This document shows positions 6,756 through 11,331 of a stretch of 22,939 nt of DNA, piece by piece. The translations under genes and the position numbers were made by a program. Location of the stretch: the IMG/VR virus record IMGVR_UViG_2671181100_000006, positions 1 through 22,939 of that record; one strand, 5' to 3'. The stretch comes from a virus (Duplodnaviria; Heunggongvirae; Uroviricota; Caudoviricetes). The notes under the pieces were generated by a model. It was not told where the DNA came from and made no database searches. It worked only from the letters and a program-made list of their open reading frames with translations. The stretch's first letter is position 1. Every line of letters begins with the position of its first letter.

Positions 6756-7673
6756 TCAGGCTGCTGGTTTTTGTTCTTCGGGCTCTTTGTAGGCGAGCAG
6801 ATCACAAAGCTGGTTAATTACTTTACAGAACTGGAACATGTCCGTACCTGCCTGGTGACGCCAGCGGTAGGCTTTGTCGTCATCATCAGAATAATCATTA
6901 TCCTTGGTATCGATCCGCCGGAAATGGAACTTATCTGTAAGCAGAAAAGAGACGCCGCAGCCTCTTAATTCCATGTTATCGACGATAAAACCTGTGTTCA
7001 GGCTCTCCAGAATTTCACTGGTAACGGAAGTGTGTTCCGCAGAGTAGCGAATAACTTCTTTCTGTTCTGCCAGGCGGGATAGCTGGACATAATCACCGAC
7101 CTCAAACCCGGCAAAGGCTGATTCTTCGCCGTCCAGATGGTTTTTAAGGCGCGTTGTCAGGCCGTTTTTGATATCACTGATGTTGATCGTGACTGTTTTT
7201 ACTGAGCCAATCACTTTAACCAGCATCGCCCCGACTAAATTGGCAATATTTTTATTGGCGGAATTAATGATCAGCAGATTTTCTTCAGTGTTATACAGGA
7301 CCAGGATCAGAGACGACTTGATGAATGCCTGTTTGCAGAGCTGAACCTTAGCATCCTGGATAATGTTGTTACGGTCAGCGCGCTTCAATTTCTGACCACA
7401 CGCATTTTCGATGCGCTGGATACGCTCATTGGCTTCTTTCATTACGACGTGCTGGGGGATTATTTTCTCATCGCGGCGAACCACGATTGCATAACCGCCA
7501 GTAATTGGCGTAACCAGCTCGCCAGTAATCGGATTAGGGACGAAGGAAGCCCGCGCGAACTCCGTTTCTGTAAGTTCAGAGTAGGGCAATTCCTGCAGGT
7601 GCCCTTCAACCGCTTCAATGCTGGGCAAAGTAGCCCGATAGACAATGGCGTTACGTAACTTTGATATTTTCAT
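6756..7673 (-). CDS. rdgC: Recombination-associated protein RdgC homologue
   Basis: 305 aa, similar in length to E. coli RdgC (303 aa). N-terminus (MKISKLRNAIVYRATLP...) resembles the RdgC N-terminus (…FKNLMVYRL…). GAGGA RBS. Confidence 0.65.
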   Translation of the reverse strand: MKISKLRNAIVYRATLPSIEAVEGHLQELPYSELTETEFARASFVPNPITGELVTPITGGYAIVVRRDEKIIPQHVVMKEANERIQRIENACGQKLKRADRNNIIQDAKVQLCKQAFIKSSLILVLYNTEENLLIINSANKNIANLVGAMLVKVIGSVKTVTINISDIKNGLTTRLKNHLDGEESAFAGFEVGDYVQLSRLAEQKEVIRYSAEHTSVTSEILESLNTGFIVDNMELRGCGVSFLLTDKFHFRRIDTKDNDYSDDDDKAYRWRHQAGTDMFQFCKVINQLCDLLAYKEPEEQKPAA

Positions 7674-8333
7674 TTCTGTTTCCTCTGCAAAGGATTAGTT
7701 AGTTATCTCCACACAACGGAAAGAGCACTGAAGCACTGGAAACTCACTTGACTAACACAGTGCTTTTTCCTGTTGTGTGCCGGGCTTCCACCGGCTCCCA
7801 TCTGTTTTTAAAGCCACTCAGATATCGTCTGGGCTGTGCCGTCTACTTCCGGCTGTCACTGCCGTCGAGAGTGCTGGCAGCTCACTGACCTGATAACTCC
7901 CAGGATCAACTGGAGTGGTTGTTATCGCTACCAAAGCGCCACTGTCCAGGACATTTAAAAGGACCGTCTCCAAGTGGTAACTCTTCCAGTCCCGCTAAAC
8001 ACTCGTGTAAATGCTTAACGTGAATGGCTGATATCCTCGTCTCTTCCGAGGCGTCACACCTTTTCGCCGCGCTGGTGGGGCGCACGTCGTGCCTGAACAC
8101 TTAGCTTGCACATTCCGGTTGTTCTGAGAGGCATGGATAAAGGGACTCTCAGGCCGCTAACGCTGCATGTGCCATACAACGGTCATGAATATTGCCGTTC
8201 ACAACTGGAAGCGCACTCCTTCAGTTACAAACCGATCCCCACCGGAAAGAAGGGGAATGCGCTTCCATGTTGTGTTCTGTTCATCCTTGTCCGTAAGTTT
8301 CGTCATGTGCCGACGAGTAGAAGATAATCATAA

Positions 8334-8370
8334 ATTGCGAGTAACGCAATAGATGTGTGCGTAAAACGCA
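8334..8370. promoter_or_regulatory. Candidate left operator (OL) with two inverted-repeat sites, ATTGCGagtaaCGCAAT and TGCGtaaaaCGCA; probable pL region
   Basis: Palindromic GCG-N5-CGC sites read directly from the sequence, of the same type as three sites in the cI-cro intergenic region. Located just beyond the repressor-gene terminator, where a leftward early promoter is expected. Confidence 0.4.
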
Positions 8371-8380
8371 AATTTAGGGC

Positions 8381-8406
8381 GAAAAAAAAGGCCTCGAATG
8401 AGGCCT
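8381..8406 (-). terminator. Rho-independent terminator downstream of the repressor gene (minus strand)
   Basis: Hairpin AGGCCTC-gaat-GAGGCCT followed on the minus strand by an 8-nt U-tract (A8 on the plus strand at 8382-8389). Confidence 0.6.
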
Positions 8407-8424
8407 AGTTTATGATGATGAATG

Positions 8425-9120
8425 CTATCCATGCCGTTTAAAGGACTGAGACTGGCTTATTAAAACCTTTCCATAGATATAGAATCTGTGTTCATTCTCT
8501 TTAGTTATATTCCATTCTCTATAACGAGGGTTATCAGAGATGACTAGCAGTTGGTCTGGTATCATCTGCAGGCGTTTAACATAAACTTTTCCATCAAAAC
8601 CAAAGACGTAAATCCCATCCCCATCGAACTCATTGATAGTTACGTCCACAAAGATTAGGTCGCCAGGCTCAATCGTTGAGGCCATGCTATCACCGCGAAC
8701 GTTGATGACCTTTACTCCAGATGGAGTCCTGCCACCAAACATTGCCAATGCCTGATCATTGCTGAACTCGATAGCATGAATGACATCTATGACGTCACTA
8801 CCGTGTATATGTCCTGCCCCGGCGCTTGCGCTCACATCAAGTACCTCGACTCTGTATACATCCACATCCTTTACGGGAGATGCATATTTTTCACTGTTTA
8901 TATGTACAGTAGTATCATTTTCGTCAGAGGTAAATAGGTCAGGTACACTTACGCTTAAAGCTTGAGCAAGTCGGTTAAGTGTCTGTTCTGAAAACTGCTT
9001 TTGTTTACCAGTTTCAAGCCTGGAAATATTGGCAGCATCAACGCCCACAGCTTCTGCAAGCTCTGCGATTTTAATGTTCTTCGCTAAGCGAAGTTGTCGT
9101 ATGCGAGATCCTATTTTCAT
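8425..9120 (-). CDS. cI: CI-like prophage repressor (XRE-type HTH plus S24 LexA-like autopeptidase domain)
   Basis: N-terminal HTH (IRQLRLAKNIKIAELAEAVGVDAANISRLETG) and C-terminal S24 motifs (GDSM...VKRL). Divergent from cro across an operator-containing intergenic region. Confidence 0.85.
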   Translation of the reverse strand: MKIGSRIRQLRLAKNIKIAELAEAVGVDAANISRLETGKQKQFSEQTLNRLAQALSVSVPDLFTSDENDTTVHINSEKYASPVKDVDVYRVEVLDVSASAGAGHIHGSDVIDVIHAIEFSNDQALAMFGGRTPSGVKVINVRGDSMASTIEPGDLIFVDVTINEFDGDGIYVFGFDGKVYVKRLQMIPDQLLVISDNPRYREWNITKENEHRFYIYGKVLISQSQSFKRHG

Positions 9121-9141
9121 TCACTCATTACATGTTGTTTT

Positions 9142-9202
9142 TGCGTTTCGTGCAAAGCAACTTGCGCAATTCGCTAGCGTGGAATAACATGCGTAATACG
9201 CA
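9142..9202. promoter_or_regulatory. Candidate tripartite right operator (OR) with divergent pRM/pR region
   Basis: Three GCG-N5-(C/T)GC palindromes: TGCGtttcgTGCA (9142-9154), TGCGcaattCGCT (9163-9175) and TGCGtaataCGCA (9190-9202), between divergent cI and cro starts. Possible pR -35 TTGCGC / -10 TAACAT with 17-bp spacing. Confidence 0.5.
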
Positions 9203-9217
9203 AAAATAGGAGGCGTT

Positions 9218-9460
9218 ATGCAATCACCATTAAGAAAATTGCGAAAATCGCATGGCATGACCTTATTGCACGTTGCAACCGGGGTACAGGTAGATCCTGC
9301 AACGTTGAGCCGCATTGAAAGATGCGAGCAAGTCCCATCTGTCGAACTGGCGGAGAGATTAGCCAAGTTCTTTAGAGGAGAAATAAGCGAATTACACATT
9401 TTGTACCCAAGTCGCTATCAAACAGATGACGTACCAAGTGCAAATAATCGTACTGCTTAA
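9218..9460 (+). CDS. cro: Cro-like HTH transcriptional regulator
   Basis: 80-aa protein with XRE-type HTH (MTLLHVATGVQVDPATLSRIERCE). AGGAGG RBS. Divergent from the repressor. Confidence 0.75.
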   Translation: MQSPLRKLRKSHGMTLLHVATGVQVDPATLSRIERCEQVPSVELAERLAKFFRGEISELHILYPSRYQTDDVPSANNRTA

Positions 9461-9494
9461 GCGGTTATTCGATAACTACAAAAGGTAAATCAAG

Positions 9495-9956
9495 ATGGTA
9501 GAGCCAAACCTCAAAGAAGCCGTCAAAGCGATGTGCAAAGCATATCCAGGTGGGCGCGAAGCAATGGCTGGCGCACTGGGAATGACGGTGACGCAGTTTA
9601 ATAACAACCTTTACGAGAAAAACGGCTGTCGTTTCTTCGAAGTCAGCGAGCTGGAAGCGATGGAAGACATTTCCAACACGTCGTTACTGGCTGATTACTT
9701 CGCTCGCCGCCGTGGTGCTCTGCTGGTGGATGTTCCGCACCTGGAAGAGCTGGATCGCGTGGACTTGTTCAGCCGGGCAATGCGTACCTCTGCCGCCAGA
9801 GGACAGGTTGATCAGATTATCGAACAGGCACTTGAGGATGGGGTAATCGAAAGACATGAAGCTGAAGAAATCATGGTGCATCACCGCCGCCACTTGGCTG
9901 CGCGTGAAGAAGAGATTGCGGCAATTATCACGTTATTTGCACGCAAAAAGAAGTGA
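9495..9956 (+). CDS. CII-like / YdaT-like early regulatory protein (family assignment tentative)
   Basis: 153-aa ORF immediately downstream of cro, in the canonical cII position. Resemblance to prophage CII/YdaT-type proteins is from memory only. Confidence 0.45.
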   Translation: MVEPNLKEAVKAMCKAYPGGREAMAGALGMTVTQFNNNLYEKNGCRFFEVSELEAMEDISNTSLLADYFARRRGALLVDVPHLEELDRVDLFSRAMRTSAARGQVDQIIEQALEDGVIERHEAEEIMVHHRRHLAAREEEIAAIITLFARKKK

Positions 9957-10193
9957 CGCCAGCGAGTTGCAGCTCCTGGCGTCGTGGCGTGTCGTTATCA
10001 GTGGAGATTACTAACGCATGAACAGTTTATCAACACAATACCGCAGGTCGCAACTTGTAGCGCGGCCAGTTCCTGGTGGAGCAGGACCGGTGCAGTTCGT
10101 GTATGGGGTAAGAGTACCAGGCGGTTTCGAACCTGTCTGCTACCAGTTTGCTCAGTGGGTGGTAGGGGACTTTAACGGCCAGGCGGAGAAAGT

Positions 10194-10373
10194 ATGCGAG
10201 AGCTCAACCGATGGTTCAGAGATCACTACGGCGTCCCGGTCAGGGTCATACGCTGGGAGCCCCAGACACAGCGCGTTATATACCTGCGTAAAGGGTACGA
10301 GCATGAATGCTTTAGCCCCCTTGAGCAGTTCAGACGTAAATTCAGAGAAATAAAGGACGATCATGAGCACTAA
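10194..10373 (+). CDS. Small hypothetical protein (59 aa), not on the ORF track
   Basis: My own translation: MRELNRWFRDHYGVPVRVIRWEPQTQRVIYLRKGYEHECFSPLEQFRRKFREIKDDHEH. GGAGAA RBS; G/C-rich third codon positions; stop overlaps the start of the O-like gene. It overlaps the track ORF 10018-10353 in another frame, and only one of the two is likely real. Confidence 0.35.
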   Translation: MRELNRWFRDHYGVPVRVIRWEPQTQRVIYLRKGYEHECFSPLEQFRRKFREIKDDHEH

Positions 10374-11331
10374 ATTAACAGGATACGTCTGGGACGCTTG
10401 CGCATCTTCGGGGATGAAACTATCCAGCGTGGCAATCATGGCGCGCCTGGCTGACTTCAGCAACGATGAGGGTGTTTGCTGGCCTTCTATCGCGACCATA
10501 TCCCGTCAGATTGGCGCTGGTGAAAGTACTGTCAGAACGGCGATAACTGCGCTTGAGAAAGAGGGATGGCTCACCCGTACGCAACGCCGCAATGGCAACC
10601 GTAATGCATCGAACGTCTACCAGCTCAACGTTTCCAAACTACAGAAAGCGGCATTTTCTCACCTGTCAGTTTCTGACACGTCAAAATCTGACACATCAAA
10701 ATCTGAACCGTCAAAATCTGATGCGTCAAAAATTGACCCCTCAAAATTTGAGGCGTCGGAATCCACCAAAAAAACCAGTTTTGACCCGTCAGAATCTGGG
10801 GGGGATCCGTCAGTAAAATCAACTACTGATCCATCAGATATAAATCCTTCTTGTCCGGACGCTTCGCAACCGGACGAACAGGGCTCTGCTGATGAATTTC
10901 TGTCACGACATCCTGACGCGGTGGTGTACAGCGCTGCAAAGCGGCAGTGGGGCAGCCAGGACGATTTAACCTGCGCCCAGTTCATTTGGGGAAAAATTAT
11001 CAGCATGTACGAACTGGCTGCTGAAAGTGATGGTGAGGTAGTTCGCCCTAAAGAACCAAACTGGACCGCATGGGCGAATGAGGTTCGCCTGATGGTGATG
11101 CAGGACGGGAGAACCCATAAGCAAATTTGCTCACTGTTCAAGCGCGCCAACAAAGATTCGTTCTGGTGTAAAAACGTACTCAGCCCGTCGAAGCTTCGGG
11201 AAAAATGGGATGAGCTGTCGTTAAAACTATCTGCTCCACTCAATAGCTCCCGCCAGGAGTCGTCCATTTCGCGAGCCAGCTTCGATGGGGTTGATTACTC
11301 ATTGCCAGAAAACTCGGGGTTCCGCACATGA
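10363..11331 (+). CDS. Replication initiator (lambda O-like) with N-terminal winged-helix DNA-binding domain and internal origin iterons
   Basis: N-terminal HTH-like region (SVAIMARLADFSNDEGVCWPSIATISRQIGAGESTVRTAITALEKEGWL). Low-complexity linker encoded by tandem 15-bp DNA repeats. Position after cII matches O. Confidence 0.65.
   Translation: MSTKLTGYVWDACASSGMKLSSVAIMARLADFSNDEGVCWPSIATISRQIGAGESTVRTAITALEKEGWLTRTQRRNGNRNASNVYQLNVSKLQKAAFSHLSVSDTSKSDTSKSEPSKSDASKIDPSKFEASESTKKTSFDPSESGGDPSVKSTTDPSDINPSCPDASQPDEQGSADEFLSRHPDAVVYSAAKRQWGSQDDLTCAQFIWGKIISMYELAAESDGEVVRPKEPNWTAWANEVRLMVMQDGRTHKQICSLFKRANKDSFWCKNVLSPSKLREKWDELSLKLSAPLNSSRQESSISRASFDGVDYSLPENSGFRT
10666..10755 (+). repeat. Putative replication origin: six tandem ~15-bp iterons (TCAAAATCTGAnnnn) followed by an A/T-rich tract, embedded in the initiator ORF
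   Basis: Units read directly: tcagtttctgacacg / tcaaaatctgacaca / tcaaaatctgaaccg / tcaaaatctgatgcg / tcaaaaattgacccc / tcaaaatttgaggcg, then caccaaaaaaaccagtttt. Same layout as ori-lambda inside gene O. Confidence 0.6.

Follow-up and report, generated by a model that had tools for sequence, protein, structure and literature searches.

The lysis/lysogeny switch of phage lambda is organised around two divergent genes, cI and cro. Its right operator (OR) comprises several dyad sites of graded quality, which overlap both the rightward promoter PR and the repressor maintenance promoter PRM, and a left operator (OL) lies at the leftward promoter PL beyond cI. In phage 434, the operators are 14-bp ACAA-N6-TTGT sequences with even spacing. 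Repressor sites are not confined to the region between the two genes: phage TP901-1 has an operator, OD, in the mor gene and a hexameric repressor that loops three sites, and the stoperators of mycobacteriophage L5 are asymmetric and spread across the genome. In the Shiga toxin (Stx) phage 933W, the operators are 15 bp long and symmetric about a central base pair, with three sites at OR and two at OL, and the repressor binds non-cooperatively (PMC3317979). Here, we describe a set of palindromes around the cI and cro genes of a lambdoid prophage contained in a 22,939-nucleotide stretch of viral DNA (IMG/VR record IMGVR_UViG_2671181100_000006, positions 1 to 22,939; hereafter the window). With a probability that we put at roughly 85%, these palindromes serve as the operators in a lysis/lysogeny switch of the lambda type, bound by CI and probably also by Cro.

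The general layout of the locus is that of lambda. The cI and cro genes are divergent, the CI protein combines a helix-turn-helix (HTH) domain with an S24 peptidase domain, a terminator follows cI, several dyad sites of graded quality overlap PR and PRM, and further sites are found at the leftward promoter beyond cI. A first-pass annotation of the window had noted five palindromes sharing a GCG-N5-CGC core, two at a candidate OL and three at a candidate OR, on either side of the repressor gene. All five are present where it placed them, and the OL/OR arrangement is borne out by the site map given below (the sites are listed without strand) and by the conserved hexamers of PL, PR, and PRM. The three OR sites do not, however, make up the full set on that side, as a perfect copy inside cro, referred to here as O-cro, had been overlooked.

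8335-8349: 15-bp form of OL1 with its flanks, TTGCGAGTAACGCAA.
8336-8348: OL1, the PL-proximal site, TGCGAGTAACGCA; perfect core; at about -34 to -22 of the predicted PL.
8358-8370: OL2, TGCGTAAAACGCA; perfect core; 22 bp from OL1, centre to centre.
8425-9120, minus strand: cI, the repressor gene; 231 aa, with an N-terminal HTH_3 and a C-terminal Peptidase_S24 domain.
9142-9154: OR3, TGCGTTTCGTGCA; imperfect half-site TGCA, overlapping the -35 element and the spacer of PRM.
9163-9175: OR2, TGCGCAATTCGCT; imperfect, ending in CGCT; its left half and the flanking T form the -35 element of PR.
9190-9202: OR1, TGCGTAATACGCA; perfect; at about -7 to +6 of PR.
9218-9460, plus strand: cro; 80 aa, HTH_3 (Pfam E = 4e-10).
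9240-9252: O-cro, the sixth, operator-like site, TGCGAAAATCGCA; perfect; in cro codons 8-12, at about +44 to +56 of PR.

Judged from the sequence, the full motif is TTGCG-N5-CGCAA, that is, 15 bp arranged around a central base pair, with the best sites reading TGCGT-N3-ACGCA. The extended core TGCG-N5-CGCA occurs in four perfect copies in the 22.9 kb, all of them within 8336-9252, compared to an expectation of 0.44, and none of 100 shuffled sequences reached four. The shorter GCG-N5-CGC motif of the first-pass annotation is indeed shared and clustered, with five of its seven copies falling within a single 915-bp span (binomial P = 2e-6), but it is not enriched over the window as a whole (7 found, 7.9 expected). 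Similarly, the annotation was right that OR contains an imperfect site, but under the extended core two sites rather than one deviate, namely 9142-9154 (TGCA) and 9163-9175 (CGCT). Elsewhere in the window, matches to the core with one mismatch occur at chance level (12 found, 13 expected), and no further repeated motif was seen in OR or OL. The putative operator set therefore comprises two sites at OL and four on the OR side, with centre-to-centre spacings of 22 bp for OL1-OL2, 21 bp for OR3-OR2, 27 bp for OR2-OR1, and 50 bp for OR1-O-cro.

Two other palindromes were considered as extra operators and rejected due to wrong geometry or core and because they are not kept in distant relatives: CTTCGCTAAGCGAAG at 9080-9094 in cI and TTGCACGTTGCAA at 9265-9277 in cro. 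The former has an operator-like N5 geometry with a TTCG/CGAA core. It occupies cI codons 11-15, where it encodes Leu-Arg-Leu-Ala-Lys, at a position in CI equivalent to that of O-cro in Cro. Most relatives retain it, but one (L018) has lost it, and it is probably coding-driven.

The conservation of the sites was analysed in two sets of relatives. The first and unbiased set consists of 12 loci found through homology to the CI protein (repressor 68-91% identical) and comes from E. coli, Kosakonia, Enterobacter, Citrobacter, Lonsdalea, Buttiauxella, and Salmonella, plus one stray contig. The gap between cI and cro, which is 97 bp in the window, is 97-98 bp in 12/12 of these loci, and the intergenic alignment is nearly gapless even though pairwise identity goes down to 67%. 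Within it, no variation is seen in 20 of the 24 half-site columns, compared to 31 of the 73 other intergenic columns (Fisher p = 4e-4). Half-sites are retained, spacers and flanks diverge, and the same pattern is seen in the second set of relatives described below. The palindromes are thus conserved alongside the repressor, the opposite of what the first-pass annotation had named as refuting its interpretation: the OR-side sites are retained at orthologous positions in all 12 loci, and the OL pair, 22-23 bp apart, in all 11 for which the OL region was available. Perfect sites occur in each relative only at positions orthologous to OL1, OL2, OR1, and O-cro. In OR3, all eight core positions are invariant, including those of the imperfect TGCA half, whereas only one of the five spacer positions is, which shows that the imperfection itself is selected. 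In OR2, the left half is invariant, and no other half-site is as poorly conserved as the right half.

The stray contig deserves a comment. A peptide scan of genome contigs with CI led to a single locus, on a 1.4-kb contig in an Actinomadura assembly (NZ_JBHSON010000232.1, 1,407 bp, labelled Actinomadura rugatobispora; our locus L004). It holds an enterobacterial-type cI/cro/cII immunity region in which the CI N-terminus is 82% identical to that of the window and every OR-side site is present. The contig is most likely contamination of the actinomycete assembly, but is still usable as a relative.

The second set was obtained by searching viral contigs at the DNA level with the invariant OR3/OR2 block, a pattern that includes neither OR1 nor O-cro. 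This search yielded at least 119 loci, so that the block does serve as a handle for finding homo-immune phages, as had been proposed: among the matches listed, all loci with the operator block encode this CI family (54-100% identity). The counts that follow refer to the 81 distinct OR regions and 107 distinct OL regions compared among the matches listed. OR1 is perfect in 78/81, with a variable centre, and O-cro is likewise perfect in 78/81. OR2, on the other hand, is perfect in none of the 81 and one base off in 65, with CG(C/T)N as the sequence of the right half in about 80%. The OL1 site was found in 105 of the 107 OL regions and is perfect in 95; the OL pair was also found in 105, with a spacing of 22-23 bp in 97 of these, and OL2 is perfect in 68/105 and carries the variant half-site TGCA in 34. 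Over 1.22 Mb of related loci among the matches listed, there are 472 perfect sites, of which only 18 lie outside immunity regions, compared to about 18.6 expected by chance. The CI recognition helix in these loci, again among the matches listed, is D-[AGS]-[AG]-N-[IV]-S-R-[LVM]-E-T-G-K-Q-K, and that of Cro across the relatives is D-P-[AG]-[TN]-L-S-R-I-E-R.

The site inside cro encodes Leu-Arg-Lys-Ser-His. Elsewhere in cro, 26 of the 27 degenerate codon columns that are invariant at the amino acid level vary in codon among the 12 relatives. In O-cro, Leu8 is TTG in 11/11, Arg9 is CGN in 12/12, and Ser11 is TCG in 9/9. Other Arg columns are mostly AGA, and in the rest of these genes TCG is used less often for Ser than any other codon (4/62). 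Replacements in O-cro mostly keep the core: Ser is exchanged for Ala via GCG, and the Leu-to-Met and Lys-to-Ile changes fall outside the core. The exception is found in one lineage, where a Ser-to-Leu change has converted CGCA to the variant TGCA. The site is thus held through both codon choice and amino acid replacements, which shows selection at the DNA level. A divergent lineage that has another Cro (L029 and L051) lacks O-cro. One locus (L023) was considered as a copy of O-cro outside coding sequence, but looks like a rearranged cro remnant and provides no independent evidence.

If the palindromes belong to the repressor, phages of other immunity should carry other sequences in their place. 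This is what is seen in the Klebsiella phage ST101-KPC2phi6.3 (MK416017), in which the rdgC and cII flanks are the same and the cI/cro pair is another one. Palindromes of the type GTAAC-N4-GTTAC, three plus three, occupy the same positions there, four of them strict and two one base off; TGCG-N5-CGCA is not found in MK416017, nor GTAAC-N4-GTTAC in the window. The E. coli element e14 (YmfK/YmfT/YmfL) has the same layout and GTAC-type palindromes, and its repressor aligns only in the S24 domain. The presence of other palindromes at the same places in such heteroimmune elements indicates that the operators are exchanged together with the repressor, and the tie between operators and immunity type drawn in the first-pass annotation is upheld.

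The element e14 had itself been considered as a member of the same immunity type, since relatives of the window carry the annotation ymfL, and was rejected because only the S24 domain aligns and its sites are GTAC-type. Its palindromes lie in the ymfK/ymfT control regions (locus L141, NC_000913 1202084-1203030). We also observed a sequence, TACTTCGTGGGCGTCCTGCCTGTT, 3' of the putative e14 PL that is common to e14 and several relatives of the window (L013-L018), pointing to mosaic exchange of immunity modules.

The positions of the sites relative to transcription follow from three promoters predicted from conserved hexamers:

8321-8349, minus strand: PL; -35 TTGCGT from 8349 to 8344 (the OL1 half-site), 17-bp spacer, -10 TATCTT from 8326 to 8321; predicted start near 8314, directed toward rdgC.
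9127-9155, minus strand: PRM; -35 TTGCAC from 9155 to 9150 (the OR3 half-site), 17-bp spacer, -10 TGTAAT from 9132 to 9127; predicted start at 9120.
9162-9190, plus strand: PR; -35 TTGCGC at 9162-9167, 17-bp spacer, -10 TAACAT at 9185-9190; predicted start near 9197.

In PL, the T, A, and final T of the -10 hexamer are invariant at the fixed 17-bp distance in 53 distinct relatives. In PR, TAAnAT is kept with invariant T/A/A/T at the same fixed spacing in 65 distinct relatives (the variants encountered being TAAAAT, TAATAT, and TATCAT), and in PRM the key positions are invariant at 17 bp in 35 distinct relatives, with ATTACA invariant in all. Between the PRM -10 hexamer and the cI ATG there are always 6 variable nucleotides, and a Shine-Dalgarno sequence is absent. 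With the predicted start at the A of this ATG, the cI mRNA would be leaderless, as in lambda. The -35 element of all three promoters is the operator half-site TTGCR. Each promoter has one site at -34 to -22 (OL1 for PL, OR2 for PR, and OR3 for PRM) and another 21-23 bp upstream. Two more sites are found at PR, which is back-to-back with PRM, namely OR1 at -7 to +6 and O-cro at +44 to +56.

These features can be combined into a model for the switch. CI dimers, and probably also those of Cro, would recognise the 15-bp dyad TTGCG-N5-CGCAA. In the lysogen, CI would fill the perfect OR1 and the OL pair, silencing PR and PL, with dimers on OR1 and OR2 blocking PR and dimers on OL1 and OL2 blocking PL. 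The weaker but conserved sites OR2 (one base off) and OR3 (with its TGCA half) would fill later or cooperatively, giving an ordered filling, and occupancy of OR3 at high CI concentrations would turn PRM down. RecA-stimulated self-cleavage of CI would relieve repression, and Cro would use the same sites as CI. O-cro may act as an added downstream roadblock or as a loop partner for OR1. The graded affinity of the OR sites proposed in the first-pass annotation is indirectly supported, in that the imperfections of OR2 and OR3 are themselves conserved. While the sites, their conservation, that of the promoter hexamers, and the module swap in heteroimmune phages are observed directly, we infer binding, the order of affinities, cooperativity, any activation of PRM, and the role of O-cro.

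Several observations weigh against this model. Within the family, there is only conservation and no true covariation between operator and repressor, because the recognition helix is the same in all relatives. In OR2, the right half is retained where the repressor is at least 86% identical, and is degenerate in several relatives with a repressor at most 80% identical. As three half-sites double as -35 hexamers, part of the conservation could reflect promoter function. A simple consensus scan called none of the promoters PL, PR, and PRM, as their -35 hexamers match the consensus at only 3/6 positions, and had to be assigned from conservation instead. Literature searches returned no published binding data for this repressor. 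Finally, the 27 bp between OR1 and OR2 correspond to 2.6 helical turns, which is not an obvious spacing for cooperative binding. It is OR2-OR3 (21 bp) and OL1-OL2 (22 bp) that are in phase, unlike the OR1-OR2 pair of lambda, so the lambda filling order may not apply. A different wiring is conceivable, in which PL, PR, and PRM each use a two-site module (the -35 site and one 21-23 bp upstream), OR2 and OR3 form the cooperative pair, OR1 and O-cro form a high-affinity pair that clamps or roadblocks PR, and O-cro is a fourth operator that the switch requires, such that spontaneous induction increases when it is lost. Taken jointly, these propositions are tentative, and we would rather bet against the full combination than on it.

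Three explanations in which the palindromes are not CI operators were weighed against the same data. The TTGCR blocks might be promoter -35 elements and nothing more, with incidental dyad symmetry and a repressor that binds elsewhere. OL1, OR2, and OR3 each do provide a -35 element exactly 17 bp from a conserved -10 hexamer, and it is the non-promoter half of OR2 that is poorly conserved. However, OR1, O-cro, and OL2 match no promoter hexamer, yet they are best or equally conserved with both halves kept; the far halves of OL1 and OR3 are conserved inside promoter spacers, where no constraint would be expected; and heteroimmune phages swap all sites together with the repressor. We therefore regard a pure promoter function as very unlikely. 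Slightly less improbable, though still very unlikely, is that Cro alone, or some other regulator of the phage or the host, uses the sites and that CI recognises a different motif. The recognition helices of Cro (DPATLSRIER) and CI (DAANISRLET) are alike, so that sequence alone cannot tell which of the two proteins binds, and Cro might prefer the TGCA variant that is conserved at OR3. Against this stands that no other repeated motif was seen in OR or OL, that the OL sites beyond cI at the leftward promoter are a classical CI target, and that CI and Cro share operators in the characterised lambdoid switches. As for other regulators, direct TTGC repeats of the kind bound by lambda-type CII (TTGC-N6-TTGC) were considered as the source of the TTGC blocks and rejected, since the CII of the window is of the CP76 family and the sites are dyads.

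The least credible explanation is that the palindromes are RNA or DNA hairpins, such as small terminators or processing sites, or have arisen by chance. A scan for terminator-like structures does flag 8350-8334, 9202-9190, and 9252-9240 on the minus strand, but the stems are only 5-6 bp long with stabilities of -2.6 to -5.8 kcal/mol, compared to about -13 kcal/mol for the cI terminator, and on these grounds, together with the lack of compensatory changes in relatives, the candidate terminators were rejected. Moreover, the six sites share one sequence and not merely a structure, and chance is excluded by the enrichment and clustering. The cI terminator shows the opposite behaviour to the operators: in the relatives, its stem sequence is replaced while pairing is preserved.

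The palindromes are thus best explained as operators of the CI/Cro switch, and the properties of the repressor agree with this assignment. Pfam recognises the HTH_3 (E = 5e-11) and Peptidase_S24 (E = 1e-20) domains of CI, and PHROG classifies it as a transcriptional repressor/CI-like repressor. Among solved structures, it gives a weak sequence match to the N-terminal domain of 434 repressor (E about 1e-4 to 1e-5) and also matches UmuD. Its translation contains GDSM with Ser145, VKRL with Lys182, and Ala-Gly near residues 100-103; it appears to be an HTH plus LexA-like S24 repressor with the predicted self-cleavage residues, i.e., the Ser/Lys dyad and the Ala-Gly site. The immunity region is 98.5-98.9% identical to those of the Klebsiella pneumoniae phages 1 LV-2017 (KY271401) and ST147-VIM1phi7.2 (MK448232). 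Leftward of the module are rdgC, a ParB-like gene, and an exonuclease gene, and rightward are replication genes, Dam, RusA, and a Q-like antiterminator. Two further features complete the module:

8389-8406, minus strand: intrinsic terminator of the cI transcript, between cI and OL; 7-bp G+C-rich stem followed by a T8 run; about -12.5 to -13 kcal/mol.
9495-9956, plus strand: CII-like protein of the CP76 (186-type) family.

The terminator is hairpin-symmetric, with an A-run on one side and a T-run on the other. Some RNA elements were observed in addition. The PL leader contains a structured RNA of ~150 nucleotides (about 8175 to 8025, minus strand) whose conservation extends to homoimmune as well as heteroimmune relatives. 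From 13 diverse copies, RNAalifold predicts 27 pairs, nine of them with compensatory double changes; the invariant parts are the loops UAUGGCACAUG and GGAAGAG and the single-stranded stretches AGCCGGAAUGUGCAAGC and GGUGUGAC. The RNA has no Rfam match and no similarity to the HK022 put region, and an Rfam search of 7000-10500 gave only one sub-threshold match (Atu_C8, E = 0.39), which we judged to be due to chance. No N-like open reading frame was found between PL and rdgC. The leader RNA could be a cis-acting antitermination RNA or a small RNA. Furthermore, two pairs of inverted repeats, 8050-8067 with 9943-9960 (83% complementary) and 7698-7712 with 10001-10015 (93%), mean that the PL and PR transcripts both contain the sequences GCrAAAAGrwGTGACGCC and GTGGAGATwACTAAC in the same sense. 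These could be nut-like signals or could mark mosaic module boundaries. Finally, a hairpin at 9955-9983 (GACGCCAG…CTGGCGTC) begins inside the cII stop codon and is not followed by a T-run; the relative L004 has a compensatory version (GACGCCCG…CGGGCGTC).

This immunity group is common. Near-identical copies are found in Klebsiella pneumoniae prophages, and relatives in Salmonella, Citrobacter, Kosakonia, Enterobacter, and Lonsdalea. Among 5,426 complete E. coli genomes, 1,059 have a relative covering at least 80% of the cI/cro module at about 70% DNA identity, and 18 records in the same collection have a copy of the module that is at least 99% identical. In one of the 1,059 genomes, that of a Shiga toxin-producing strain, all sites are in place in a more degenerate form. 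The analysis provides the putative operator sequence, the site map, and the predicted promoter map for this group, and the motif offers a simple way to classify these prophages by their predicted superinfection immunity, which is relevant to choosing or engineering temperate phages for Klebsiella.

How, then, does the locus compare to the described systems? With lambda it shares the features given above, but the operator is the 15-bp TTGCG-N5-CGCAA instead of a 17-bp sequence, there are two OL and four OR-side sites, one of them in cro, a half-site forms the -35 element of all three promoters, and the OR spacings are 21, 27, and 50 bp. In addition, the CII protein is of the CP76 (186-type) family, and no N-like gene is visible downstream of PL. 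With 434, the relationship is remote: the N-terminal domain of CI is distantly 434-like and Cro is also of the HTH_3 family, but the recognition helix starts with Q-Q-S in 434 and A-A-N in the window CI, and the window sites are TGCG-N5-CGCA rather than the 14-bp ACAA-N6-TTGT operator. O-cro is reminiscent of TP901-1 and L5 in that a site of the repressor type lies downstream of the lytic promoter, within the first lytic gene, but the repressors are unrelated, and the window has only one such intragenic site, which is symmetric and 50 bp away from OR1. It does not have a stoperator-type set of many asymmetric, orientation-dependent sites, as no further perfect site occurs in the 22.9 kb.

The closest characterised design is that of phage 933W (PMC3317979). 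Both have the 15-bp geometry, two OL sites, and three intergenic OR sites, with a conserved block of ~4 bp per half-site around a less conserved centre; the window differs from 933W in having an additional sixth site. The window CI is only ~40% identical to the CI of an Stx2 phage, which may or may not be of the 933W type. Our literature searches found no published description of this operator type or this repressor. We conclude that the locus is an otherwise ordinary lambdoid CI/Cro switch with one extra conserved site and a specificity that we did not find described in the searchable literature, in which an operator inside cro and a half-site that serves as the -35 element of three promoters represent small, testable departures from the lambda paradigm.

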